This document shows positions 3,638 through 56,508 of a stretch of 62,672 nucleotides of DNA, one piece after another. Positions within the stretch are counted from its first letter, which is position 1. Every line of letters starts with the position of its first letter. Below the pieces are notes generated by a model that made no database searches, was not told where the DNA came from, and saw only the letters and a program-made list of their open reading frames with translations. Source of the stretch: a virus (taxonomy: Duplodnaviria; Caudoviricetes). The stretch lies in IMG/VR virus record IMGVR_UViG_3300028590_000016, positions 1 through 62,672 of that record; one strand, 5' to 3'. The position numbers and the translations under genes were made by a program.

Positions 3638-6600
3638 TGGCGAATTCAGTCGGCTCCGTCCAAATTGATCTTGAGGCGAGGCTGGCTAAGTTTGAGTCGG
3701 ATATTGGCCGCGCCGCGCGCATCCTCGAAAGAGAAATGGCGCGTGGCGCGGCTCAGGCCGAGCGTGCGATGCAGCAGATGCAGCAGAAGGTCACGCGGGA
3801 GCTTGAGAAGATTCAGCAGGCAGGCGCACAGATCGGCCGCGCGTTCGTTGGCTGGTTCAGCGCGCAGGCTATTGCTGGATTCGCACAGGGGCTTGCAAGA
3901 GTAGCCGATAGCTACGCAAACATTCAGGCTAAGGTTCGGCTTGCTGCTGGTGAGCAAACGAACCTAGCCGAAGCGACGCAGAAGGTTTTCGCAGTCGCGC
4001 AGAACACGTTTAACTCGTTTGAATCGACGACGGCGCTTGTACAGCGTACCGCGCTAGCCCTGCGCAATGCAGGTAAGGACGCGTCGACAGCTTTCACTAC
4101 CGGCGTGCAGCTCGCCGAAGTCTTCAATAAATCGCTTGTCGTCTCCGGCGCGTCGGCCATAGAGGCCGCTTCATCCGCTATGCAGTTCTCGCAAGCGCTC
4201 GCGTCCGGAAAGTTCCAGGGCGATGAGTTCCGCTCCGTCATGGAGAACAATTCCCGATTCGCTCAACTGCTGGCTGACTCTCTTGGGGTTACCACGGCCA
4301 AGTTGCGCGAGATGTCGACCGCCGGGAAGCTCAACATTGAATCGATGCTTGGCGTTGTCCGCAATACGGAAAAGCTGGACGCCGAGTTCGCGAAGATGCC
4401 GGTGACGATTAGCCGTGCGACGACACAGCTTTCCAACGCGTGGACGAAGTTCATCGGTGAGACAGATCAGGCGGCAGGTTCATCGCGGGCAATCGCTGAG
4501 GCCATTCAACTGCTCGCCGGTCGGCTGCCAGCCCTAGTTGATTCCGTCCTGCGTCTTACCACGGTTTTCGTCACCTACTTCGCTGTCTTTCGAGTTGCGC
4601 CGGCACTATACGCTGCGAGCACCGCTGCATTAGCGGCTTACACCGCCGCACTGACATCTTCGTCAATCGCCGCTGAGCTTGGAATGACGGCGAACGCCAA
4701 GTTCTCTCTTTCCATGAACACGGCTGAGATTGCCGCAGCGTCGCTGACAGTCAAGCTTCAGGCTCTTTCGGTTCTATTGTTCTCGGGTTTCGTTGGTTGG
4801 GAAATCGGCAGCATTTTGCGCGAGCAGTTCGTGGAAGTTCGCGTCGCCGGTATCGCAATGGTGGAAGGCTTGCTGGTCGCATGGGAGCGCTTCAAGGAAG
4901 GCGCCAAGATTGCGGCAGCGACCATTCAAGCGGCTTTCGGGAATCTTGATGAGGTGCTTGGGCTTAGCTTGAAGTCGTTGGCCTTGGGCTGGGCGAAATT
5001 CTTTGACTTCGTTCCGGCTATCCCCGGTGGCGCGCAAATCGCAGAAGGCCTGCGCGGCATCGTCTCTGAGATGGGTCCAGCAATCAACACATCGGCTCTG
5101 CTGGCTGGTTCGGTCGCCAATATCCGACTTGAAACCGAGCTTGCCATCGGCGCCATTCGTGAAAGCACTGGCGCCCTTGCCGAGGCGGAGCTTGCGGGGG
5201 ACAAGGTTGCTACGGCGCATGCAAAAGTAGCGCAGAGCACGGCTGCTGCCGCGCAGCAGATGGATACGCTGACGGTCAAGGCACCAGAGCAAGCCAAGGC
5301 GGTGAATTCAGCCGAAAGCGCGCTCAACGGCTACAACGATGCGCTGGCTAGACTTGAGAATTTGGCCGATCGTTCGTCGAAGGCTCTTGGGCCGCTGGAA
5401 AAGGCCGAATCCGATCACGCGATGCGCGTGCGGGAAATTGATGCCGCGCTGCAGAAAGCGATCGACAAGTCGGAAGAATACTTTGCAGAGACGGCACGGC
5501 AGGTACCGCTAGCCGATCGAGTAGCGGCCAAACTGCGGATGGTGGCCGAGGCTAGAGCTAAGCATGCGGCGGCCATGGGCGTAGAGGATGACGCGAATAA
5601 AGAGCGCATCGCCTCCGCGCAAAAAGAAATCGACGTTCTTTCTCCGCTACTGCAGAAACTCAAGGATCGAACCGACAACATTGGCCTGAGCGATCGAGAC
5701 CTTGATATCGCAAATCAGGTCAGAGAATTGCGCCAAGAGTATTCTGAACTGACGGAAGCGGCGAAGGCTGCAAATCCGCCGCTTGAGGTCATGGAAGCGA
5801 CGCTGCGGAAACAGGCTGGTGCAACGTATGACGCCGAGAAGGCTGCCGAGTCTTGGCGCAATGCGTGGGAGAACGTAGTTGATGGCGTCTCGCGCGCGAT
5901 CGGTGATTTTGCTACAGGCCAGATTAGGACGTGGAAGGACTTCACCCGTTCGTTGGTGGATACGTTCAAGCGAGCAGTTGCGGACATCATTTCTGAGTGG
6001 GCGAAGACGGCGATTATGAAGTCGTTCGCTGGTGGTGGTGGAAGCATTTGGGGCGGCCTTATCTCTGCTGGCGCCGCGATGCTCGGTGGCAGCGGCAAGG
6101 GAACGGCTGGTGGCGAAACTGGCGGCTTCACGTACGGGCCACAGGCTTCTAGCAACCCATTCAGCGGCAACGGAATGCTACTGAACTACGCCACGAACTA
6201 TGCCGGCGGTGGTGGTTCCATGGGCAGCGGTTCGGTTCCAGGATTCGGTGGCAACGTCGGTTCTACGATGGCGTTCGGTGGCGCCTTGATGGGCGCGCAG
6301 TACGGCATGACGCGCGGTGATGGTGGCATGGGCACCTTGGGCAGCACTGCGGCTGGCGCCATTGCTGGCTATTGGGCTGGCACCGTGGCTGCTGGTGCGA
6401 TCCTTGGTGCGTCTGCTGGTGCTGCGGCGGGTGGCACTGCTGTGGCGGTGTCTGGTGCCGCTTCCGGCGCAATGGGCGCCGCAGCTGCGGTTCCTGTGAT
6501 CGGCTGGATCGCCCTTATCGCTCTGGTCGCCGACTACTTCAGCGATGGCAACGTGTTCGGCACGAAATGGCGTCCGTCCGAGCATCGTTCGGAACTGAGC

Positions 6601-8703
6601 TTCAGCGACGAGGGGGCAACGGCTACTTCGCAAATCGACGAATGGCGGAAACAGAGCCAGTGGAGCCAGGCGTGGGGCCGTGTCTTTACCGGTGGTGCGC
6701 TGCTGCCTTCGGATTGGGGTGACAAGGATCGTCGCACGCGCGATCTTGCGGTCGATCCCGAGGTGTTGGAAGCGATCAAGAAGATCCATACCGACCTTCA
6801 GAACACGTATGAGAAGGCTGCGCAGCAGTTGGGCATCGCGGTCATTCCGATGCTTGATGCGACGTTCGACACGATCACGACTTACACGGAAAAGGGGAAG
6901 GTCAAGACGACGAAGACGGTTGGGACGATCCTCGGGCAGATGTACGAGGAACCGCTGGATCAGTTCGTGAAGCGCATGCACGCGGAAGCGATCATCCAAT
7001 CTTTGGACTCGATCGTGAAGGGCGCATCGGCTGCTGCGGAGGCTTACCGCAAGAATGCTGACGACTTACTCGACGTCGCGGCGATGATGACGCAGGCGCA
7101 CCTCGATCAGAAGGAAGGCAACGTGTTGCTCGGTGCTGGCGACAGCATGGAGGACATCGTTGCTTGGGTCGAAAAGCTGCGCGTCGGCGAAGAAAAGCTG
7201 ACGGACACGTATTCGCGTCTGCAGCAGGCTTCACAGGCTTACTTCGGAATCTTGGAGCGCGCTAACGAAGCATTGACCGCGATCAAGACGCCGAACACGC
7301 CTTTGGCGCAGATGCGTACTGCCCTGGAACAGATCGACGAACAGTTGGCTGAAAACATCAAGGGGTTGAACGATGCGGCTATCGCGGCGGGTCTCACTGC
7401 GGCAAAGGAAGAAGACCTTGCGAGGATTCGGGAACTTGCGGCGGCGCAGATAGACAAAATTGCGAACGACTTCTTTGCTGGGATCGATCAGCAAATTGAA
7501 GCGATGAACACGGATCACACGCCGGCTGGCGATTTCGCTATGACGATGCGTGCGATTTCGCGGCAGATGTACGACAACATCGAGGCAGCGAACATGCTGG
7601 CTCGGGCGCAGGGTCGTACCGGGGCTAGCACGACGCAGTTGGCGCGCATCCACGAGCTTGCAGCCCGTCAGGCTGCGGCAGCGATTCGCCAGCTTGAAAC
7701 GATCGCGCAACAACAAGTGCGTAGTCTCTACGGCACCGCGTACACGCTTGCCGATGTTGATGCGGATATCGCGGAGTTGGAAGGCCGTGCGGGCGCAGCG
7801 GCGCAAGCGGTGCAGGACTTCGGTTCTGCGATGGGTGATGCGGCCTCGGCTGCGTCTGACGCCATCAATCTGTTGCTTGGTGACCTCAGCCCGCTGAACG
7901 ATCAGCAGAAGTTGCAGACCGCGTTGGGCGGACTGCAGGCTGGCACGGTGTCGCAGGAGCAAGTGCTTCAGATTGGCCGTCGTCTGTATGCGAGCACGGC
8001 GCAATACAACGCGTTGTTCTGGCAAGTCATGAACATGGGGTCGCGCGCTGCGAACGGTGGTGGCGGTTCCGCTGCTGGGCAGGCTGACCCGAATACAGCG
8101 AAGCCGCTGACGTCGGAAGAGCAGGAGCGGTTGGCGCAGCTCTATGAACGTCGCGATGTGCTCCGTGCGCAGGGCCGATTGGAAGAAGCGCGGCAGCTCG
8201 CAGACACTATCGCTTCGCTGGCTGCTGCGAAGGGTCTGACCTTCGAAGAAATCGCGAAAGAACTGAATTTCAACCTTGGCGATTTGGCGGCTGACCTCGG
8301 TCTTACGAACGATGGTTTGCTAGCATATCTGGCTGAGATTGACGTCAATGCGGATGCGGTCCCGGACTCGATCACCTCGAACACGGACAGGTTGCTGGCC
8401 CGTCTGGATCAGTATTTCGGCTCCGGCCAATGGACCGATACCGGCTCTGAATCGACTGGTGACGAGTCCGAAAAGCCAGGCGATATCTCGCCGAACAGTT
8501 CCAAGGAACAGCGCGAATCGCTGGAACCTGTCACGAAGGAAATCGAACTCGGCCGCAGAGCAAGCGCCGTTAACACAGACAGACAGGTGGATTCGACGGA
8601 TCGGACGACTGAGGCCATTGAAGGGCTGCGCGCTGATATCCGTCGACAAGACGCCGATAACCCACGCAGCACTCGATACATGGTTCTGAGGTACGAACGT
8701 TGA
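3637..8703 (+). CDS. Tape measure protein
   Basis: 1688 aa, Ala-rich; QFSQALASGKFQGDEFRSVMEN tape-measure domain; Gly-rich hydrophobic segment. Confidence 0.95.
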   Translation: MANSVGSVQIDLEARLAKFESDIGRAARILEREMARGAAQAERAMQQMQQKVTRELEKIQQAGAQIGRAFVGWFSAQAIAGFAQGLARVADSYANIQAKVRLAAGEQTNLAEATQKVFAVAQNTFNSFESTTALVQRTALALRNAGKDASTAFTTGVQLAEVFNKSLVVSGASAIEAASSAMQFSQALASGKFQGDEFRSVMENNSRFAQLLADSLGVTTAKLREMSTAGKLNIESMLGVVRNTEKLDAEFAKMPVTISRATTQLSNAWTKFIGETDQAAGSSRAIAEAIQLLAGRLPALVDSVLRLTTVFVTYFAVFRVAPALYAASTAALAAYTAALTSSSIAAELGMTANAKFSLSMNTAEIAAASLTVKLQALSVLLFSGFVGWEIGSILREQFVEVRVAGIAMVEGLLVAWERFKEGAKIAAATIQAAFGNLDEVLGLSLKSLALGWAKFFDFVPAIPGGAQIAEGLRGIVSEMGPAINTSALLAGSVANIRLETELAIGAIRESTGALAEAELAGDKVATAHAKVAQSTAAAAQQMDTLTVKAPEQAKAVNSAESALNGYNDALARLENLADRSSKALGPLEKAESDHAMRVREIDAALQKAIDKSEEYFAETARQVPLADRVAAKLRMVAEARAKHAAAMGVEDDANKERIASAQKEIDVLSPLLQKLKDRTDNIGLSDRDLDIANQVRELRQEYSELTEAAKAANPPLEVMEATLRKQAGATYDAEKAAESWRNAWENVVDGVSRAIGDFATGQIRTWKDFTRSLVDTFKRAVADIISEWAKTAIMKSFAGGGGSIWGGLISAGAAMLGGSGKGTAGGETGGFTYGPQASSNPFSGNGMLLNYATNYAGGGGSMGSGSVPGFGGNVGSTMAFGGALMGAQYGMTRGDGGMGTLGSTAAGAIAGYWAGTVAAGAILGASAGAAAGGTAVAVSGAASGAMGAAAAVPVIGWIALIALVADYFSDGNVFGTKWRPSEHRSELSFSDEGATATSQIDEWRKQSQWSQAWGRVFTGGALLPSDWGDKDRRTRDLAVDPEVLEAIKKIHTDLQNTYEKAAQQLGIAVIPMLDATFDTITTYTEKGKVKTTKTVGTILGQMYEEPLDQFVKRMHAEAIIQSLDSIVKGASAAAEAYRKNADDLLDVAAMMTQAHLDQKEGNVLLGAGDSMEDIVAWVEKLRVGEEKLTDTYSRLQQASQAYFGILERANEALTAIKTPNTPLAQMRTALEQIDEQLAENIKGLNDAAIAAGLTAAKEEDLARIRELAAAQIDKIANDFFAGIDQQIEAMNTDHTPAGDFAMTMRAISRQMYDNIEAANMLARAQGRTGASTTQLARIHELAARQAAAAIRQLETIAQQQVRSLYGTAYTLADVDADIAELEGRAGAAAQAVQDFGSAMGDAASAASDAINLLLGDLSPLNDQQKLQTALGGLQAGTVSQEQVLQIGRRLYASTAQYNALFWQVMNMGSRAANGGGGSAAGQADPNTAKPLTSEEQERLAQLYERRDVLRAQGRLEEARQLADTIASLAAAKGLTFEEIAKELNFNLGDLAADLGLTNDGLLAYLAEIDVNADAVPDSITSNTDRLLARLDQYFGSGQWTDTGSESTGDESEKPGDISPNSSKEQRESLEPVTKEIELGRRASAVNTDRQVDSTDRTTEAIEGLRADIRRQDADNPRSTRYMVLRYER

Positions 8704-45047: not shown

Positions 45048-45931
45048 TGGCCTGCGATTGGATCAAGATGCGGACTGACCTCTATCGTGATCCGAAGGTA
45101 TGTCTGATCGCTGAAATTTTGGACTCCGGCGATGGGCAGCTTGCGCGTTACGTGAACCAAAACACAGGGTGTGACATGAGTGTAACGCGTAACGTAACGC
45201 GTAACGCGACCGTTGGTGCGCTCGTAACGGTATGGGGTGTTATGAGGTTGCGCGGAAAGCGCAACGGTGACGATCTTGTGTGCCAAATGGCGACGATTGA
45301 AGTGCTTGATGACATCGCCGACCTGCCTGGTTTCGGTTCCGCCATGGCCTCTGTAGGGTGGGTTGTTGAGACTGAAACGGGGGTAACTTTCCCGCGCTTT
45401 TTCGAGGACTACAACGTTGATCCCGCTGAAAAAACCCCATCTTCCGCTGCTGAGCGCCAGCGCCGATATCGGGACCGCCTGAAGCAAGCTTTGGCGGCGT
45501 CACAAGGTGGCGTAACGCGTGACGATTCAGTGGACTGCGTTAGTAACGTAACGCGTGACGTAACGTTACGCTCTAGAGAAGAGAAGAGAAGAGAAGAGAA
45601 AGAAGATAAAAAGACTTCCTCATCGGCTTCGCCGAATCGGCGCCAAAACCGGTTGGAAGACCCTCCTGGATTCGTCGAGTTCTGGTCTGCGTATCCACGC
45701 AGCAGCGGACGCAAGGATGCCGCGAAAGCTTGGGCGAAGCTCGCACCAGATGCGGCTATGCAGAAAATCATCATGGCCGCTGTGGCGAAGCAAACGCAGT
45801 CAGATGACTGGCGCAGCGATGGGGGCAAGTACATCCCGCATGCGTCGACTTGGATCAATGGCGAGCGCTGGAACGATGGCCTGTTCCGACAACAACCCCA
45901 CGAACTCCCCGAACACTTGCAGGGCATCTGA
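45047..45931 (+). CDS. Replication initiator (lambda O-analogous)
   Basis: DWIKMR.DL..DPKV; AERQRRYR; F.EFWSAYPR..K..A.KAW; YIPHASTWIN..RW.D. Confidence 0.85.
   Translation: MACDWIKMRTDLYRDPKVCLIAEILDSGDGQLARYVNQNTGCDMSVTRNVTRNATVGALVTVWGVMRLRGKRNGDDLVCQMATIEVLDDIADLPGFGSAMASVGWVVETETGVTFPRFFEDYNVDPAEKTPSSAAERQRRYRDRLKQALAASQGGVTRDDSVDCVSNVTRDVTLRSREEKRREEKEDKKTSSSASPNRRQNRLEDPPGFVEFWSAYPRSSGRKDAAKAWAKLAPDAAMQKIIMAAVAKQTQSDDWRSDGGKYIPHASTWINGERWNDGLFRQQPHELPEHLQGI
45182..45614 (+). repeat. Putative origin: GTAACG(C) iteron clusters and AGAGA tract inside the initiator gene
   Basis: GTAACG/GTGACG arrays at 45182-45208 and 45512-45570; purine tract 45575-45614. Confidence 0.65.
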
Positions 45932-48849
45932 TGCGCGCGACCGAGATAGCAAAGCTGCTGGCGAGACAGGCCGAGGATGTAGCGCGGAAACTTCTGCCGA
46001 ACGGGAAGCGCCACGGGCGGGAATGGAAAGTGGGCAGCGTCGGGGGCGAGGCTGGGGAATCTCTTGGCGTTTGCCTCAGTGGCGATCGTGCCGGAGCATG
46101 GGCTGATTTCAGTACTGGCGATACCGGCGACCTTATCGGGCTATGGATGGCTGTAGCGAATCTGGACTTGCGGGAGGCATGCGAGGAAGCGATTGCGTAT
46201 CTTGGCGTCGCTGAACATCGCGTCGAGAATCCGAAACCAGCCTACAAACGCCCGACGAAGGAGAACGTCAGCAAGCTCAGCGACGAGCACTATGCATGGC
46301 TGACCGAAGTACGATTGATCGCGCCGGCAACGATTGCGGCGTACAAGCTCGCGACGAAGGCCACCGGGCGCGGTGTCGCGCTGATGTTCCCATACCTGCG
46401 TGATGGCGAATTGCTCGCGGCGAAATATCGCGGAGCGCCTGAGAAAACCTTTTGGACCGACTCAGAGTGCGAGCCGTGCTTGTTCGGCTGGCAGGCTATC
46501 CCGGCAGCGCAGCGCGAATTGGTGCTCTGTGAGGGAGAGCTAGACGCACTGGCATGGCACACATTCGGTCATGCCGCGCTATCGGTTCCGTTCGGAGGCG
46601 GCGGTGGCAACAAGCAGCAGTGGGTGCCAAATGAGTTCGACAGGCTTGCGCGCTATGACGTGCTGTACCTGTCCATGGACATGGACAAGTCTGGACAGGA
46701 GGCGGTTGCTGAACTGGTCAGTCGTCTCGGCCGTGAGCGCTGCCGTATAGTCGAACTGCCACGCAAGGACGCGAACCAATGCCTGATCGATGGCTTCACC
46801 GTCGAGGACATGGCGGCAGCAAAGAAGCGCGCTCGCACGCTGGACCCCGCCGAACTTCGCAATGCTGGCGAGTTCGAGGATGCGGTGTGGGCCGAGTTCA
46901 ACCGCACTGACGAAGGCCTGAGACTCCCTTGGCGGAAAACACACGATTCGCTTTTGCTCAGGGCCGGCGAGACGTCTTTTTGGGCGGGTGTGAACGGGCA
47001 CGGGAAAGCGCTCAGTTTGGACACAAGAATCCCGACGCCCTCTGGCTGGTCGACGATGGGTGACTTGAAACCGGGGGATTGGGTTTTTGACGAAAACGGG
47101 ATGCCGTGCGAGGTCGTTGCGCAAACAGCGGTGATGCTAGAACGGCCGGTCTTCAAAATCACATTCTCTGACGGCTCGGAAATTGTGGCCGACGCTGAAC
47201 ACGAATGGCTTACTTTCACAGCAAAAGCCAGGCAAAGCTTTCGCAATGCCAAGATGAACAGCCGTCTCGAAGGGGGCGCCACAAAAAGATTTGGGAGCGA
47301 CCAAAGCCACAAGAGAACCAAGCCATCCATTGTCACGACAGCTCAAATCGCCAGCGGCGTATTCGTAACTGGCGGCTGCTGGGAAGGGCTTTCGGAGCAT
47401 AGCATTCAAGTTTCTGGCCCCCTTCAGTGCGAACTAGTCGAATTGCCAGTCGACCCTTACTTGCTTGGTGTTTGGCTTGGCGATGGGACGACAGCCAGTT
47501 CAGCGATAACCACCGCTGACACCGAGATAGTTCAGAGGTTCACAAGGGCTGGGCACATTGTTACGAAACTTTCATCTCCGTACGGATACGGAATCACGGG
47601 AGGCCACTTTGTCCGAGGACTAAAGACGGCGAGAGTCTTAGGCAACAAGCATATCCCTGCGATTTATTTGAGAGCCAGTTTCGAGCAGCGACTAGCGCTT
47701 CTGCAGGGGCTGATGGACACTGATGGACACGTCACTGCATACGGAAGATGCGAGTTCACAAACACAAACAAGCGACTTGCCGATGCAGTTCTTGAGCTTG
47801 TCCTGTCGCTCGGCATTCAGGCCAAGATGATCGGCGGACGGGCTATGCTGTATGGGAAGGATTGTGGCCCCAAGTACCGGATCACGTTCACGCCGGATTT
47901 GCCTGTCGCGACTCTACCTCGCAAAGCGGCACGGCTTCGCAAAGTAATTTCAGATCGAGTCAAGCACCGATTCATAGTTGGATGTCAGCCGGTAGAATCA
48001 GTGCCAGTCAAATGTATCCAAGTGAATTCTAAGAGCCATATGTACTTGGCTGGCGAAACAATGATCCCCACGCACAACAGCGCCGTGGTCAGCCACATCG
48101 TCGGATCATTGGCTTGTGATGGGGTGCTTTGTTGCGTCGCCTCGATGGAGTTTCGAACGTCGAAATGGCTCATGCGAATGGCTCGACAGATCGCTGCGCG
48201 CAGCGATCCAACTGAAGTGTACGTGCGGCATATCGTTCAATGTTTGGCTGAATCGCTTTGGACTTTTGACGTAGCAGGGCGCGCAAAGGCAGATAGAATT
48301 CTTGAGGTCTTTGAATACGCTCGTAGGCGATATGGGATCGAGCTTTTTGTTCTCGACAACCTCACGAAGTGCGGTTTCGCCGACGATGATTTTCCGGGGC
48401 AGAAAGCTTTCGTTGAGACGTTGACCGACTTCGCGCGGGATACACGGACACATGTAGCGGTGGTCGCTCATATGCGCAAAGGTGAATCAGAAGACAAGCC
48501 GTCAGGCAAGTTCGGTGTCAAGGGTTCGGGCGGCATCATCGACATGTGCGATACGCTCGTCGAGGTCTGGCGCAACAAGAAGCGCGAGGCGGCAATTCGT
48601 ATCGCGAAAGAGACTGGCAATCCAATTGATCCGGACTACGCTGATCAGGCAGACACGATGCTGTATGTCCGCAAGCAGCGCGAGACCGGCATTGAACCAG
48701 CGATCAAGCTTTGGTTCGATCCTGACTCGACGCAGTTCCTTGGGAAGGCCGATCACAGGGCGCTGCCGCTGTTGAATCGGACGTGCGTCCCGGTGCAGGA
48801 CGATGGCGGGGCGAATGGCGCTCACGGATATGAGGCAAACGTGCAATGA
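45931..48849 (+). CDS. Toprim primase-SF4 helicase with intein
   Basis: CEGELDAL, DMD..G (Toprim); Walker A GVNGHGK|S; LDNL, VAH.RK, VKGSG.I.D. Confidence 0.9.
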   Translation: MRATEIAKLLARQAEDVARKLLPNGKRHGREWKVGSVGGEAGESLGVCLSGDRAGAWADFSTGDTGDLIGLWMAVANLDLREACEEAIAYLGVAEHRVENPKPAYKRPTKENVSKLSDEHYAWLTEVRLIAPATIAAYKLATKATGRGVALMFPYLRDGELLAAKYRGAPEKTFWTDSECEPCLFGWQAIPAAQRELVLCEGELDALAWHTFGHAALSVPFGGGGGNKQQWVPNEFDRLARYDVLYLSMDMDKSGQEAVAELVSRLGRERCRIVELPRKDANQCLIDGFTVEDMAAAKKRARTLDPAELRNAGEFEDAVWAEFNRTDEGLRLPWRKTHDSLLLRAGETSFWAGVNGHGKALSLDTRIPTPSGWSTMGDLKPGDWVFDENGMPCEVVAQTAVMLERPVFKITFSDGSEIVADAEHEWLTFTAKARQSFRNAKMNSRLEGGATKRFGSDQSHKRTKPSIVTTAQIASGVFVTGGCWEGLSEHSIQVSGPLQCELVELPVDPYLLGVWLGDGTTASSAITTADTEIVQRFTRAGHIVTKLSSPYGYGITGGHFVRGLKTARVLGNKHIPAIYLRASFEQRLALLQGLMDTDGHVTAYGRCEFTNTNKRLADAVLELVLSLGIQAKMIGGRAMLYGKDCGPKYRITFTPDLPVATLPRKAARLRKVISDRVKHRFIVGCQPVESVPVKCIQVNSKSHMYLAGETMIPTHNSAVVSHIVGSLACDGVLCCVASMEFRTSKWLMRMARQIAARSDPTEVYVRHIVQCLAESLWTFDVAGRAKADRILEVFEYARRRYGIELFVLDNLTKCGFADDDFPGQKAFVETLTDFARDTRTHVAVVAHMRKGESEDKPSGKFGVKGSGGIIDMCDTLVEVWRNKKREAAIRIAKETGNPIDPDYADQADTMLYVRKQRETGIEPAIKLWFDPDSTQFLGKADHRALPLLNRTCVPVQDDGGANGAHGYEANVQ
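47008..48078 (+). mobile_element. Class 3 intein (Ala1) with LAGLIDADG homing endonuclease, 357 aa
   Basis: Begins ALSLDT, has HEW and VKCIQV, ends PTHN before Ser; LGVWLGDG and LQGLMDTDG. Confidence 0.9.
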
Positions 48850-53371: not shown

Positions 53372-53565
53372 GCCAACCTATTCCGAAGATTAGCTTACCA
53401 ATGAAGATCGTCGGCGGTTTCGTGGTGATCGTTTCGGCGCTGACTTTGGCGCCTGTGGCGGTTCTTTGTCGCGGCATAGGCTTCATTTGTCGGCTCATGC
53501 AGTTCCATTTCACGAAGGGCATGGACGACTACGACACGCTTGCAGACAAGGTGAGAACGCCGTGA
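53368..53565 (+). CDS. Small membrane protein
   Basis: Hydrophobic; coupled. Confidence 0.55.
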   Translation: MSQPIPKISLPMKIVGGFVVIVSALTLAPVAVLCRGIGFICRLMQFHFTKGMDDYDTLADKVRTP

Positions 53566-53801
53566 CCGCCGAGAAAGAACCGAAGGCAAGCCGATATCCG
53601 TGGGCTGAGGCGCCGGATTGGGCCGAGTACGCGGCGACGGATCGTGACGGTGAAGCGGTGTGGTATGAGCGGCAGCCACGGCTTAGCCAGCAATTCGGCT
53701 GGTGGCATGTAAGCTATGGCGGGCGCCAGCAATCGGTTCGCTCTGAGTGGCCCGTGCCGGGCGTAGAAGACTACAAAACCAGCCTTGAGGTCCGCCCATG
53801 A
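53562..53801 (+). CDS. Conserved phage hypothetical protein
   Basis: W.EAPDWA...ATD.DG..WY..P; SLE.RP. Confidence 0.7.
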   Translation: MTAEKEPKASRYPWAEAPDWAEYAATDRDGEAVWYERQPRLSQQFGWWHVSYGGRQQSVRSEWPVPGVEDYKTSLEVRP

Positions 53802-54136
53802 CCACAGTCCGCGAAGTCCTGATCGCCGCTCGCGCGAAGATCGCGGGGCCGGATGCGATTACTTTTGCCGGGCTGGCCGTGAATGACATGAACATCGTAT
53901 GCGATCCGCGAAGCGAGGGCGCTGTTGCCTGGAACGGCGAGGGCGCAGTGTTCTCCATGACTGGCGACGATCCGTACAAGATCGGATACGGCGAGGCGAT
54001 GGGAACACTCGCCGCACTCCATGCATTAGACGATCAGGTCGGCGGCATCCGCGTTGGCAAGGTTGCCGCTGGCATGACGCAAGACGGGATTCTGGCTATT
54101 TTCGATCGCGCCATAGCCGCTCAAGGTGCCGCATGA
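53798..54136 (+). CDS. DUF6197-like paralog
   Basis: TVREVLIAARAKI..ILAIFDRAIAA. Confidence 0.65.
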   Translation: MTTVREVLIAARAKIAGPDAITFAGLAVNDMNIVCDPRSEGAVAWNGEGAVFSMTGDDPYKIGYGEAMGTLAALHALDDQVGGIRVGKVAAGMTQDGILAIFDRAIAAQGAA

Positions 54137-54459
54137 AGACGACACTGCAAATCCTGATCGATGCACGGGCACTGTTGAAGGGTGGCGGTAAATGGTGTAA
54201 GGGTGCCAATGCCCGTGGGATGCGAGGAACCCGAGTTGACCCGAACGGTAAGTATGCGGTTTGTTTCTGCGCTCAAGGTGCGCTATTCCGCGTTGCTGGG
54301 CGTCAGGGGATCTTTGGAGCAACGACGGCGCTTCAGAATTTCACGCTGCCTATGACGCTGCTGGAGTTCAACGACCAAAGCCACCGCACGAAGCGCGAGG
54401 TCATCGCCCTTTTCACGCAGGCTATCAAGGCGGAGAGGAAGCATGAACTCCACGCGTGA
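54133..54459 (+). CDS. DUF6197-like paralog
   Basis: WCKG..AR, CFCAQGAL, FND...T..EVIALF..AI. Confidence 0.7.
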   Translation: MKTTLQILIDARALLKGGGKWCKGANARGMRGTRVDPNGKYAVCFCAQGALFRVAGRQGIFGATTALQNFTLPMTLLEFNDQSHRTKREVIALFTQAIKAERKHELHA

Positions 54460-54736
54460 AGTCCTAGTCGCGGCACGGAAGCGGATAGAGCGCGTGATCA
54501 ACAGCTATACGGCTTTCACGGCTACTTTGAAGCTACAGGATGCTTGCCATCAATGTGGGCAGCCGGGCTTGTACAGAGATGCGTATCGCGCTCTGCTGGG
54601 CGAAGCAACTGCTTCAAATCTTAGTGGCGGACCGGCTGAAATTGGTAGTCTCGCAGATATCGCCAGAGCCATTGGCAAGGAAGCCACGCTAGCCCTGTTC
54701 GATCGCGCCATCGCGGCGCAAAAGGAAGTGCCATGA
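54443..54736 (+). CDS. DUF6197-like paralog (divergent)
   Basis: STREVLVAARKRI..LALFDRAIAA. Confidence 0.62.
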   Translation: MNSTREVLVAARKRIERVINSYTAFTATLKLQDACHQCGQPGLYRDAYRALLGEATASNLSGGPAEIGSLADIARAIGKEATLALFDRAIAAQKEVP

Positions 54737-54738
54737 TG

Positions 54739-55185
54739 CTGGAATTAGCTGGTCTGGCCGAGTCGAATTCGTGAAATTCGACCGAAACTCAGACAGGCTA
54801 ATTTCAGACAACAGAAGACATAAAGGATCTTTGGGACACCCTATGGGAGCTAAGCTCGTACCTTCATGCTGGTATCGCTCTGGAACTGTCCGGATCGGTT
54901 TCCCATCCATAGGACTCCGACAAGTCACCCACGTGTCCGCTAACCCGGTTTTGAAGGCGCCGATCCTCAAAGCGCCCGAAAGCGATAGCCTATTCTGACG
55001 TGCAGGCGGCCGACCCCATGACTACGCGCGTCTTGGCGCTGGGGTGGCAAGGGGATGGAAGGGTAGGTTAGACTTACGAAACAGTTTGGTGTCTGCGGCC
55101 CTTGCAACACCAGATTGGGCCGGTCGAGCGTCTAACTCGACCGGCCACCTGATCATACACCGCTGGAATGGAAGCCAGTGGTGTG
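54739..55185 (+). ncRNA. Candidate large structured ncRNA(s) upstream of the tRNA cluster
   Basis: More than 10 nested stems; no credible ORF. Confidence 0.6.
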
Positions 55186-55206
55186 AAGTTCGCAATAGAT
55201 AGTTTT

Positions 55207-55293
55207 GGTGCGTTCCGCTAGGTGGCTAGCAGCCGGTCTTGAAAACCGGAGGTGACCGCAAGGTTAAGGGTTCGACTCCTTAGCGCACCGCCA
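55207..55293 (+). tRNA. tRNA-Ser(TGA)
   Basis: Cloverleaf, CCGGT-CTTGAAA-ACCGG, long variable arm, TTCGACT, GCCA. Confidence 0.9.
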
Positions 55294-55297
55294 AATT

Positions 55298-55386
55298 GGA
55301 AGGTTAAGCGGGAAGGTTCCCGCACTGGTTTGCTAAACCAAGTGCTCCGGCAGCGGAGTGTGGATCAAGACCACAGCCTTCCTCCA
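55298..55386 (+). tRNA. tRNA-Ser(GCT), atypical T loop
   Basis: GGAAGGT/GCCTTCC acceptor, TTGCTAA loop, long variable arm, ATCAAGA T loop, TCCA. Confidence 0.8.
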
Positions 55387-55394
55387 AGTTGTAC

Positions 55395-55471
55395 GGAGGC
55401 GTAGCTTAGCGGTTTAAAGCATCGGCCTGTCGAGCCGACGACCATGGGTTCGAATCCCATCGTCTCCGCCA
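55395..55471 (+). tRNA. tRNA-Asp(GTC)
   Basis: TCGGC-CTGTCGA-GCCGA, TTCGAAT, GCCA. Confidence 0.92.
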
Positions 55472-55544
55472 GTTGTTGTTAGCCTGATGAGGCCGTGAGG
55501 CCGAAACATGCGCGCAAGGAAGCGCCATGTAGCTAGCTGGCGGC
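55472..55544 (+). ncRNA. Type I hammerhead ribozyme, predicted cut after A55531
   Basis: Stem I GTTAGC/GCTAGC; CTGATGA 55484-55490; stem II GGCC-GTGA-GGCC; GAAA 55503-55506; stem III CATG..CATG; GUA triplet. Confidence 0.9.
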
Positions 55545-55679
55545 AGCGAATGCCGGCGGGTCTACATCTCAAGCGTGAGGTCGCAGGTTCAAATCCTGCC
55601 GTGGGTGAAAGCCCACGTAGCTCAGTGGTTAGAGCGCATGAAACGACTCGCCAAACCCTTGTCGCTGCTGTCCAGCTAG
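55532..55679 (+). ncRNA. YrlA-like Y RNA (circularly permuted tRNA mimic)
   Basis: Long terminal stem with CGAATG opposite CTTGTC; T arm, then GAAA-capped acceptor stem, then D arm. Confidence 0.82.
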
Positions 55680-55682
55680 AAC

Positions 55683-55761
55683 ATGCCCGCATAGCTCAGT
55701 CTGGTAGAGCAGCGTATTTGTAATTCGTTTGCCGGTGGTTCGAATCCACCCGGGCGTGCCA
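55683..55761 (+). tRNA. Atypical tRNA-Thr(TGT)-like gene
   Basis: Canonical D and T arms and CCA; acceptor register shifted 2 nt; weak anticodon stem. Confidence 0.6.
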
Positions 55762-55762
55762 A

Positions 55763-55836
55763 GCGGGTATGGGATAGTGGCTGTTCCTTGGTCTTCCAAG
55801 CCAATGACGCGCGTTCGATTCGCGCTATCCGCTCCA
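55763..55836 (+). tRNA. tRNA-Gly(TCC)
   Basis: GCGGGTA/TATCCGC, TTGGT-CTTCCAA-GCCAA, TTCGATT, TCCA. Confidence 0.9.
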
Positions 55837-55854
55837 ATATTTGACTTACTGTGC

Positions 55855-55883
55855 TTGAAATCCCGAGAACCGGGGGCTAAACT
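55855..55883 (+). promoter_or_regulatory. Putative late promoter (pR'-like)
   Basis: TTGAAA-17-TAAACT upstream of a hairpin and the lysis genes. Confidence 0.6.
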
Positions 55884-55937
55884 GGTCAAAGTCGATAGCT
55901 GCGCCAGATTGATTTGCGAGTGAAATTCGACCATTGA

Positions 55938-55970
55938 GAGGCCCGCCAAGTGCGGGCTTCCGTCGTTTCT
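55938..55970 (+). terminator. tR'-like terminator
   Basis: GAGGCCCGC-CAAGT-GCGGGCTTC with weak T tail. Confidence 0.55.
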
Positions 55971-55986
55971 AGGCTTGGAGAAACCC

Positions 55987-56508
55987 ATGGTTCTGACGAA
56001 AGACGATCTGGCCGCAGTGAAGGCGGCGGCGCGCAAGGGTGCGCTTGAGGGCGCGGCGGAAGCGCTGAAGGCTCATTTCGGCGACAAGGCCGATACTGGC
56101 ACGGCGACGGACAACACCGCCCTGGCGCTGGACGAGTGGGGTTCGATCGCTCTGCCGCAGTATCCGGGTTGGCGTTTCTTCGCCCCGTTCCTGGTTGCAT
56201 CCGCGATGACGCGGCAGCAAGTCGGGAACATAATGGTGCAATGCGGCGTCGACCAGACCGGCGCGCTTGTGCCCGCTGGTCCGCAGCCTTTCGGTTGGTG
56301 GGACGGGCAGAAGATCCATTCGCTGTACTTGCCGCTTCAGCGCGATACCGGTGATGTGCCGATTTTCGGCGGCGTCAAATGGGAGGCAGCGGACGGTTTC
56401 GAGGACCAGGAGCCGAAGTACCTGTTTCTGCGGTTGCGCACGCGCTGCACGTCGATGGCCGACCTCGAATCCTCGCTCAAGGGCCACGTTCCCGGCTTCT
56501 CGGAATAG
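55987..56508 (+). CDS. Hypothetical protein, first late gene
   Basis: GGAG before ATG; strong GC3 bias. Confidence 0.7.
   Translation: MVLTKDDLAAVKAAARKGALEGAAEALKAHFGDKADTGTATDNTALALDEWGSIALPQYPGWRFFAPFLVASAMTRQQVGNIMVQCGVDQTGALVPAGPQPFGWWDGQKIHSLYLPLQRDTGDVPIFGGVKWEAADGFEDQEPKYLFLRLRTRCTSMADLESSLKGHVPGFSE

Follow-up and report, generated by a model that had tools for sequence, protein, structure and literature searches.

A densely folded non-coding leader ahead of the tRNA, hammerhead and YrlA genes of a 62.7-kb phage

A non-coding leader of exceptional stability

We analyzed a segment of 470 nucleotides (nt) directly ahead of a tRNA array in IMGVR_UViG_3300028590_000016, the 62,672-bp IMG/VR virus record of an uncultured soil phage, with an estimated completeness of 73%; the window below refers to this whole record. 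The segment, here called the leader, is non-coding and exceptionally stable, is organized in local modules and directly adjoins the tRNAs. The interpretation that we favor, and that in our judgment has an even chance of being correct, is that it is the processed, structured and untranslated leader of an operon of RNA genes only. Such an operon would comprise, again with confidence evenly divided, the leader, tRNA-Ser, a tRNA-like element, tRNA-Asp, a hammerhead ribozyme, a YrlA-type Y RNA, tRNA-Thr and tRNA-Gly in this order. The leader and the domains predicted within it are listed by position in the window, with helix probabilities and the z-scores of the isolated domains.

54737-55206, + strand: structured non-coding leader, 470 nt, supported by folding, codon scores and a negative Rfam scan
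54739-54807, + strand: Domain 1, a 69-nt interrupted hairpin (inverted repeat I1); probability 0.98-0.99, z -5.9
54834-54937, + strand: Domain 2, a four-way junction closed by GGACAC/GUGUCC; z -2.4
54949-54981, + strand: Domain 2b, a hairpin with an 11-nt loop containing GAUCCU; probability 0.90-0.97, z only -1.5
54986-55070, + strand: Domain 3, an irregular 85-nt long hairpin; probability 0.93-0.99, z -3.7
55082-55117, + strand: hairpin H1, stems of 11 and 4 bp; probability 0.95-1.0, z -2.9
55118-55146, + strand: hairpin H2, 11 perfect pairs and a 7-nt loop; probability 0.96-1.0, z -6.0
55156-55185, + strand: hairpin H3, 11 pairs and an 8-nt loop; probability 0.96-1.0, z -5.8

The leader ends at the base before the start of tRNA-Ser(UGA) at 55207, and 21 nt separate the end of H3 from this tRNA. 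An earlier note, made from the sequence alone, had described 54739-55185 as densely paired, non-coding and directly ahead of the tRNA cluster. ARAGORN confirmed the position, and the other two statements are borne out by the folding and codon analyses that follow.

The minimum free energy (MFE) of the leader on the + strand is -191.1 kcal/mol, compared with -157.0 +/- 6.9 kcal/mol for dinucleotide shuffles (z -4.97), and 0 of 100 shuffles were as stable. Natural sequence served as a second control, in which the energies of 397 segments of 470 nt from across the genome were regressed on GC content. The GC-corrected residual of the leader was -2.85 standard deviations (sd), and among the 397 segments only the overlapping one at 54951 was lower; the next two most stable segments after the leader were the tRNA cluster itself. 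After GC correction, no other 470-nt segments of this 62.7-kb phage are as stable as the leader and the tRNA cluster next to it.

The predicted structure is a row of seven local domains and not one globally closed fold. Helix probabilities are 0.9-1.0 in six of the seven domains, and the ensemble fold of the leader contains no long-range helix with good support. Domain 1 is built of a 12-bp lower stem (54739-54750/54796-54807), a 5-bp middle stem (54752-54756/54790-54794), an asymmetric internal loop and an 8-bp upper stem (54762-54769/54775-54782) capped by a 5-nt loop. The junction of Domain 2 spans 54840-54913 and carries three small hairpins with helix probabilities of 0.72-0.94, the value for its CCUAUGG/CCAUAGG helix (54840-54846/54907-54913) being 0.72; the closing GGACAC/GUGUCC helix (54834-54839/54932-54937) is found in the centroid and in the fold of the isolated domain and is weak in the ensemble of the whole region. 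The Domain 3 helix 54986-54996/55060-55070 has a probability of 0.97. What is unusual about the leader is the density of its structure, not any individual hairpin.

The pairings listed in the earlier note were all found in their places by sequence reading, as inverted repeats and in the pair probabilities. Its two longer-range proposals, AGGATC (54824-54829) with GATCCT (54962-54967) and GTCTAAC (55130-55136) with GTTAGAC (55067-55073), are true complementarities, the former joining 54824-54829 to the GAUCCU in the loop of Domain 2b, but both are absent from the MFE and centroid structures and are at chance level; by our own arithmetic, about six perfect 7-mer complements are expected per 470 nt.

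Coding potential

We considered whether the leader encodes a small protein, either from 54771-54998 on the + strand (75 amino acids (aa), or 51 aa in its ATG form) or from 54689-54970 on the - strand (93 aa). A codon log-odds model was trained on 14 long genes. Coding chunks of the same length scored 0.24 +/- 0.14 and non-coding frames -0.28 +/- 0.19, and the three paralogous genes upstream of the leader scored 0.14-0.29, which is coding-like. The 75-aa open reading frame (ORF) scored -0.20 and the 93-aa ORF -0.07 per codon; all six frames of the leader were negative, and its five candidate ORFs scored as non-coding frames do. The only match to the 75-aa ORF among 5.8 billion clusters was its own 51-aa gene call, and the 92-aa ORF had 0 matches at E <= 0.001 among 1.84 billion representatives. 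None of the five ORFs matched a Pfam family, and the 75-aa ORF had 0 matches in PHROGs.

The frames are open, and a protein collection lists the 51-aa product of the + frame, called on the contig of the leader and on two others. Nonetheless, the non-coding codon scores and the lack of any homologue besides the phage's own product, or of a family in Pfam or PHROGs, make a small protein extremely improbable. As read from the sequence, the GTG at 54771 lacks an upstream Shine-Dalgarno sequence, and the ORF on the - strand opposes all neighboring genes and overlaps ORF97, the last of the upstream paralogues. A conserved, translated ORF at either position, which the earlier note had named as fatal to its own view, was not found. 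A decayed fourth copy of the upstream paralogues was rejected.

Known RNA families

The + strand of 54737-55206 was searched with 4227 Rfam families and gave no match at the gathering score or at E <= 10, GOLLD and ROOL included, which agrees with the earlier note in that no known family could be assigned. Ribozyme models did not match the leader at E <= 10, nor did the YrlA model RF02553, which comprises a permuted tRNA-like domain (T arm, closed acceptor-like stem, D arm). No tRNA was found in the leader by ARAGORN at thresholds of 100, 90, 80 and 70% or by the Rfam tRNA model at E <= 10. A regular-expression scan of 54700-55700 returned no strict match to the Rsr-binding motif GNCGAAN0-1G, which Y RNAs carry on the 5' strand of their basal stem (PMC4201824), and terminator-like sites, defined as a GC-rich hairpin followed by a T run, numbered 0 in 54737-55206. 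A scan of the window for the hammerhead core (CUGANGA...GAAA) returned 55484-55506 and one chance match inside a gene, with none in the leader. The idea that the leader starts with a second hammerhead was rejected; the Domain 1 segment CUGGCCGA...CGAAAC deviates from the core and is without a third helix.

The RNA cluster downstream of the leader

The neighboring protein genes and every RNA gene lie on the + strand, and the RNA cluster is arranged as follows.

55207-55293, + strand: tRNA-Ser(UGA), by ARAGORN
55298-55386, + strand: unannotated tRNA-like cloverleaf; fold -41.1 kcal/mol, z -3.3
55395-55471, + strand: tRNA-Asp(GUC), by ARAGORN and Rfam
55472-55543, + strand: type I hammerhead, core CUGAUGA...GAAA at 55484-55506
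55532-55680, + strand: YrlA-type Y RNA; RF02553 match at 55543-55671 over the full model
55683-55761, + strand: tRNA-Thr(UGU), by ARAGORN and Rfam
55763-55836, + strand: tRNA-Gly(UCC), by ARAGORN and Rfam
55938-55960, + strand: first terminator-like hairpin 3' of the cluster, from a consensus scan and suggestive only

The cloverleaf at 55298-55386 ends 3' in UCCA, its variable arm is long and its anticodon loop reads GCU. It is atypical in its 6-bp D-like stem with a 4-nt loop and in its T-like loop AUCAAGA; it escapes ARAGORN until the thresholds are lowered to 80%, where it is listed as tRNA-???, and it has no match to the Rfam tRNA model. Its identity may be that of an aberrant tRNA-Ser or of a tRNA mimic.

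The hammerhead is the sole match to core plus stem II outside coding sequence in the window. It scores 24.6 bits with Hammerhead_3, the type III model of Rfam, which is below the gathering score. Folded alone, it adopts as its MFE structure a three-way junction in which the three stems are all present, with a canonical core and an open stem I. The Y RNA scores 69.7 bits (gathering score 69) with an E value of 6e-14, and its basal stem reaches past the Rfam match to 55533/55679, the 5' strand from 55533 pairing with 55671-55679; the extended fold has an energy of -74.6 kcal/mol (z -6.4). From the numbering of the core, hammerhead cleavage would fall between 55531 and 55532, one base 5' of the first paired base of the YrlA stem. 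Since the basal stem starts at 55533, the ribozyme would set where the Y RNA begins. One and the same sequence provides the 3' strand of hammerhead stem I and the 5' strand of the Y RNA stem, and the hammerhead appears to create the 5' end through a switch of pairing partner. The tRNA-Thr begins 3 nt past the YrlA stem, so that RNase P would trim the other end of YrlA.

The published survey located YrlA through its adjacency to Rsr (PMC4201824). No Rsr gene (TROVE, PF05731) was found in the 62.7-kb record at E <= 1, although with the record at 73% completeness a copy elsewhere is possible, and no RtcB gene was found in the same incomplete record. A literature search for links among hammerheads, Y RNAs and Rsr, with supplementary tables outside its reach, found no relevant paper. 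Between tRNA-Gly and the next gene there is a promoter-like site at 55855-55883 followed by the terminator-like hairpin at 55938-55960, and these may be an attenuator or chance matches; the count of terminator-like sites is no better than in shuffles.

Genomic context

The genes that frame the leader and the RNA cluster are these.

44.9-48.8 kb, + strand: replication initiator and primase-helicase, upstream of the leader
53798-54136, 54136-54459 and 54443-54736, + strand: three tandem paralogous small genes of 112, 107 and 97 aa
54443-54736, + strand: ORF97, the last paralogue, with its stop codon at 54734-54736, 3 nt ahead of the first helix of the leader

The paralogy of the three small genes is indicated by BLASTP E values of 1e-7 and 4e-4, and the middle one (107 aa) matches phrog_762. 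A 177-aa gene and then a GH19 endolysin lie 3' of the RNA cluster. The primase-helicase (45850-48849) is interrupted at residues 600-660 by a LAGLIDADG intein-like homing-endonuclease domain, and its relatives are mostly about 600 aa and without this domain. Among cultured phages, the best primase matches are just 47% identical. The prophages with the closest primase (59-63% identity) sit in Rhodanobacter and Dyella genomes, and parts of the leader stretch are present in 8 soil DNA runs. The host range of the phage points to soil Proteobacteria.

Search for relatives of the leader

Relatives were sought by sequence, by pattern and by covariance model. A blastn search of 54400-56000 against 50,697 GenBank phage records gave 21 matches, all in the tRNA part only (query 817-1439). 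Exact-pattern scans of IMG/VR gave 0 matches for H2 and 0 for the Domain 1 core, and a 23-mer of Domain 2 had 0 matches in GTDB genome contigs. The flanking proteins, used as anchors in IMG/VR, led to no relative of the leader, and a metagenome scan returned one contig that begins 67 nt 5' of the downstream gene and so does not hold the leader.

We also gathered related loci through primase alignment, 80 from IMG/VR and 80 from prophages. With blastn and nhmmer against 81 loci and then 83 further ones, nothing under E 0.5 was seen in the leader; five whole genomes gave a single 25-nt match (E 0.0096), and 401 genomes of the order of the closest prophages gave 0 leader matches. Three single-sequence covariance models returned only self-matches at E < 0.1 against 173, 98 and 98 loci; such models are weak and this is weak evidence of absence. 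RF02553 was above its cut-off in 0 of 50 records of relatives, and of 8 IMG/VR loci retrieved with a YrlA-shaped pattern, none was a YrlA at the gathering score. A sister lineage at about 92-97% identity exists, seen as two proteins on contigs of 2.5 and 9.1 kb and as variant contigs in sequencing runs, and a more distant trace of it is a 69%-identical primase on an assembly contig of 81.9 kb. Short contigs from four soil runs gave two identical pieces within the leader, leaving 54849-55092 uncovered and providing no internal variant. As a separate observation, an unrelated locus (7361-7484 of locus L170) has a Betaproteobacteria-1 RNA (73.4 bits) 1.8 kb 5' of a phage tRNA trio.

A conserved leader in D3-like Pseudomonas phages

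The tRNAs in 30 related loci lie mostly 5-6 kb downstream of the primase and on the same strand. D3-like Pseudomonas phages, whose primase is about 47% identical to that of the phage studied here, carry a conserved non-coding element of 290-413 nt directly ahead of tRNA-Gly/Asn/Thr. This D3-type leader and its hammerhead variants were found at the following places, given by our locus numbers.

L051:15150-15504; also L022, L024-L027, L029, L031, L032, L034, L036-L038, L041 and L042: D3-type leader
L037:16190-16234 and L034 (aligned columns 380-430): hammerhead variants of the D3-type leader; Rfam HH9, 16.4 bits, below threshold

The D3-type leader has optional hairpin inserts, and in the two variants the 3' domain gives way to a segment that contains the hammerhead core CTGATGAG...CGAAAC. 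RNAalifold predicted 87 pairs, and the close similarity of the copies leaves only two of these with a compensatory change. No Rfam family matched it at E <= 10. It occurs in 51 GenBank Pseudomonas phage records, D3 among them, whose annotation either calls it a hypothetical protein or omits it, and we know of no published description of it. Homology between the two leaders was rejected, as nhmmer found no sequence similarity and there was no covariance-model match. The D3-like provirus at L022 also has a DUF3800-VI RNA (45.2 bits; 5059-5114, - strand).

A proposed role as a processed leader

Given the arrangement of the locus, we propose that the leader is transcribed rightward through read-through from the three upstream small genes. 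Co-transcription, the processing sites and a protective role are what we infer here; read-through is suggested by the shared strand, by a consensus scan that found no promoter-like or terminator-like site on the + strand of 53500-55770, and by the position of the first terminator-like hairpin beyond the RNA cluster. RNase P processing of tRNA 5' ends is established enzyme behavior, and a cut at the 5' end of tRNA-Ser would release the 3' end of the leader at 55206. Domain 1, perhaps cut by RNase III, may mark the 5' boundary; its architecture recalls phage RNase III processing hairpins of the T7 type.

Once released, the RNA and the mRNA upstream of it may be shielded from 3' exonucleases by the three 3'-terminal 11-bp hairpins. 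The dense structure would also leave Rho no free loading stretch on a long untranslated transcript. One stable by-product RNA, or several, composed of independent modules could result, similar to T4 RNAC and RNAD. The hammerhead/YrlA junction indicates that precise RNA processing is central to the design of the cluster. According to passages of PMC3088659, hammerheads flank genes in prophage transcripts. The D3-like phages, which share the primase family and have their 290-413-nt element ahead of tRNAs at the same genome position, provide a precedent for such a leader.

Several points weigh against a processed and protective leader. No homologue was found in GenBank phages, IMG/VR, GTDB or about 170 related loci, and neither conservation nor covariation therefore supports a selected structure. 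The closer primase relatives (52-63% identity) have no tRNAs or have upstream gaps of just 6-131 nt, so that the long leader is not a constant feature of the lineage. No RNA sequencing run with the stretch is listed, the 8 runs that contain it being soil DNA. Uninterrupted stems of at least 9 pairs are frequent in this genome, with 62 on the + strand. The earlier note was right that G-U pairs favor the + strand, but the criterion is weakly discriminating: the energy gain of the + over the - strand, 16.4 kcal/mol, is ordinary, since 43 of 145 other segments favor the + strand equally and the sd of the strand differences over these segments is 19.2. The assignment of a strand from raw energies was dropped for this reason. 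Finally, the RNase III and RNase P steps draw on resemblance and general knowledge, and 470 nt is more structure than protection or insulation needs.

Alternative explanations

The leader might instead be an evolutionary leftover, an unselected spacer derived from palindromic junk or from decayed RNA genes, tRNA genes among them. This would fit an orphan for which no homologue was found and which has a GC content (0.54) a little lower than the sequence around it; the cluster already includes one aberrant tRNA-like element, and the four-way junction of Domain 2 includes a 7-nt loop, UUCAUGC. In local alignments of the leader with the seven downstream RNA elements, tRNA-Thr resembled Domain 1 in its D and anticodon arms (p ~0.047), a lone similarity that does not survive correction for seven tests. 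Together with the negative tRNA searches, which extend to the 70% threshold of ARAGORN and E <= 10 with Rfam, this led us to reject decayed tRNAs. Decay erodes structure, yet the leader is the most stable stretch of the genome; its perfect or near-perfect 11-bp stems are unlike tRNA arms, and phage genomes seldom retain 470 useless nt. We regard a leftover as fairly unlikely. That the leader is a new large phage non-coding RNA with a function of its own, either GOLLD- or ROOL-like or a decoy or sponge acting with YrlA and the tRNAs, we judge to be unlikely. The exceptional stability of the fold argues for it, as do the genuine YrlA and hammerhead nearby, the four-way junction and the possible complementarities between loops and strands. 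The leader also adjoins tRNA-Ser in the virus record, a location shared with GOLLD and ROOL by the criterion in passages of PMC5737381. Such an RNA would be expected to have several multistem junctions and covariation-supported pseudoknots; the single-sequence fold of the leader has one four-way junction. A single large RNA of the GOLLD or ROOL type, families that the earlier note had mentioned, was not demonstrated; the fold is a string of local domains, with no well-supported long-range helix or multi-junction core. In a sequence of this length the proposed pseudoknot pairings are expected by chance, Rfam is silent even at E <= 10, and no relatives were found although ornate functional RNAs usually surface through conservation.

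Inverted repeats acting in DNA or transcription, whether as palindromes that bind proteins, as a signal for an origin or for packaging, or as terminators and attenuators gating the tRNA array, are very unlikely. H2, like the upper stem of Domain 1, is a perfect palindrome; both are equally stable on the two strands and share a GTCGA...TCGACCG core (direct repeat D2), but we estimate that the shared 15-mer, identical at 12 of 15 positions, is about what chance gives in 470 nt. Domain 1 and H2 as wholes are near-perfect palindromes that fold on both strands (z -5.9/-5.6 and -6.0/-5.2). Unlike DNA palindromes, Domain 3 and H1 lose stability on the other strand (composition-corrected z -3.7 vs -1.2 and -2.9 vs -0.5), and Domains 2 and 2b favor the + strand likewise. 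No hairpin of the leader precedes a T run and terminator-like sites are absent from it; the genes for the replication initiator and primase are 6-10 kb away on the upstream side, and packaging genes do not border the leader. Among the rivals, these DNA-level signals and then the small protein are the least plausible.

Significance

In about 1.1 kb, and without a protein gene, this phage combines the very stable leader of 470 nt with a hammerhead, a Y-RNA mimic and five tRNA-type genes. Phage tRNA arrays have come to be viewed as counter-measures against host nucleases that cut tRNAs, and we know of no function for the RNAs that accompany such arrays, T4 RNAC and RNAD, GOLLD and ROOL. We count the leader among these structured companions of phage tRNA arrays. 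If it is functional, the locus would be a compact system for their study. A decidedly unlikely extension is a new class of large phage RNA of which the leader would be the first representative seen, set in an RNA-only cassette with the hammerhead-released YrlA, the tRNA-like element and the tRNAs, that would hijack or decoy host RNA surveillance and tRNA-targeting defenses (Rsr/PNPase, Rtc repair, anticodon nucleases), with the D3-type leader as an independent, conserved solution to the same problem. The present value of the leader, as an orphan, is that of a lead; the hammerhead-YrlA junction and the D3-type leader are firmer by-products.

Comparison with known systems

GOLLD and ROOL, as passages of PMC5737381 describe them, are large structured non-coding RNAs that often occur near tRNAs in phages and prophages, and a cryo-electron microscopy preprint also deals with them (10.1101/2024.12.08.627333). 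The leader resembles them in adjoining a phage tRNA array and in being structured and non-coding; it differs in being shorter than the ROOL average of 581 nt, in matching no Rfam family and in being an orphan.

Bacterial Y RNAs invite comparison since a true YrlA lies 340 nt 3' of the leader and Domains 1 and 3 are long hairpins. Second Y RNAs of the YrlB/Yrn2 type are long hairpins that are co-transcribed and processed with YrlA, according to passages of PMC4201824. The leader differs from Y RNAs in having neither the GNCGAAN0-1G motif nor a match to RF02553, in a record without an Rsr gene.

T4 RNAC and RNAD are much shorter than the 470-nt leader with its seven modules. They are non-coding RNAs from a phage tRNA region with a role described as unknown in passages of PMC3014915. 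The leader is likewise a non-tRNA RNA beside a phage tRNA cluster and would be released together with the tRNAs. Domain 1 in turn shares with RNase III hairpins of the T7 type a lower stem, an asymmetric internal loop, an upper stem and a location at a gene boundary.

The D3-type leader differs from the leader studied here in being conserved, in 51 records, where the latter is an orphan. The two are alike in their position relative to the primase, in strand and in adjacency to tRNAs, and both are non-coding and predicted to be highly paired.

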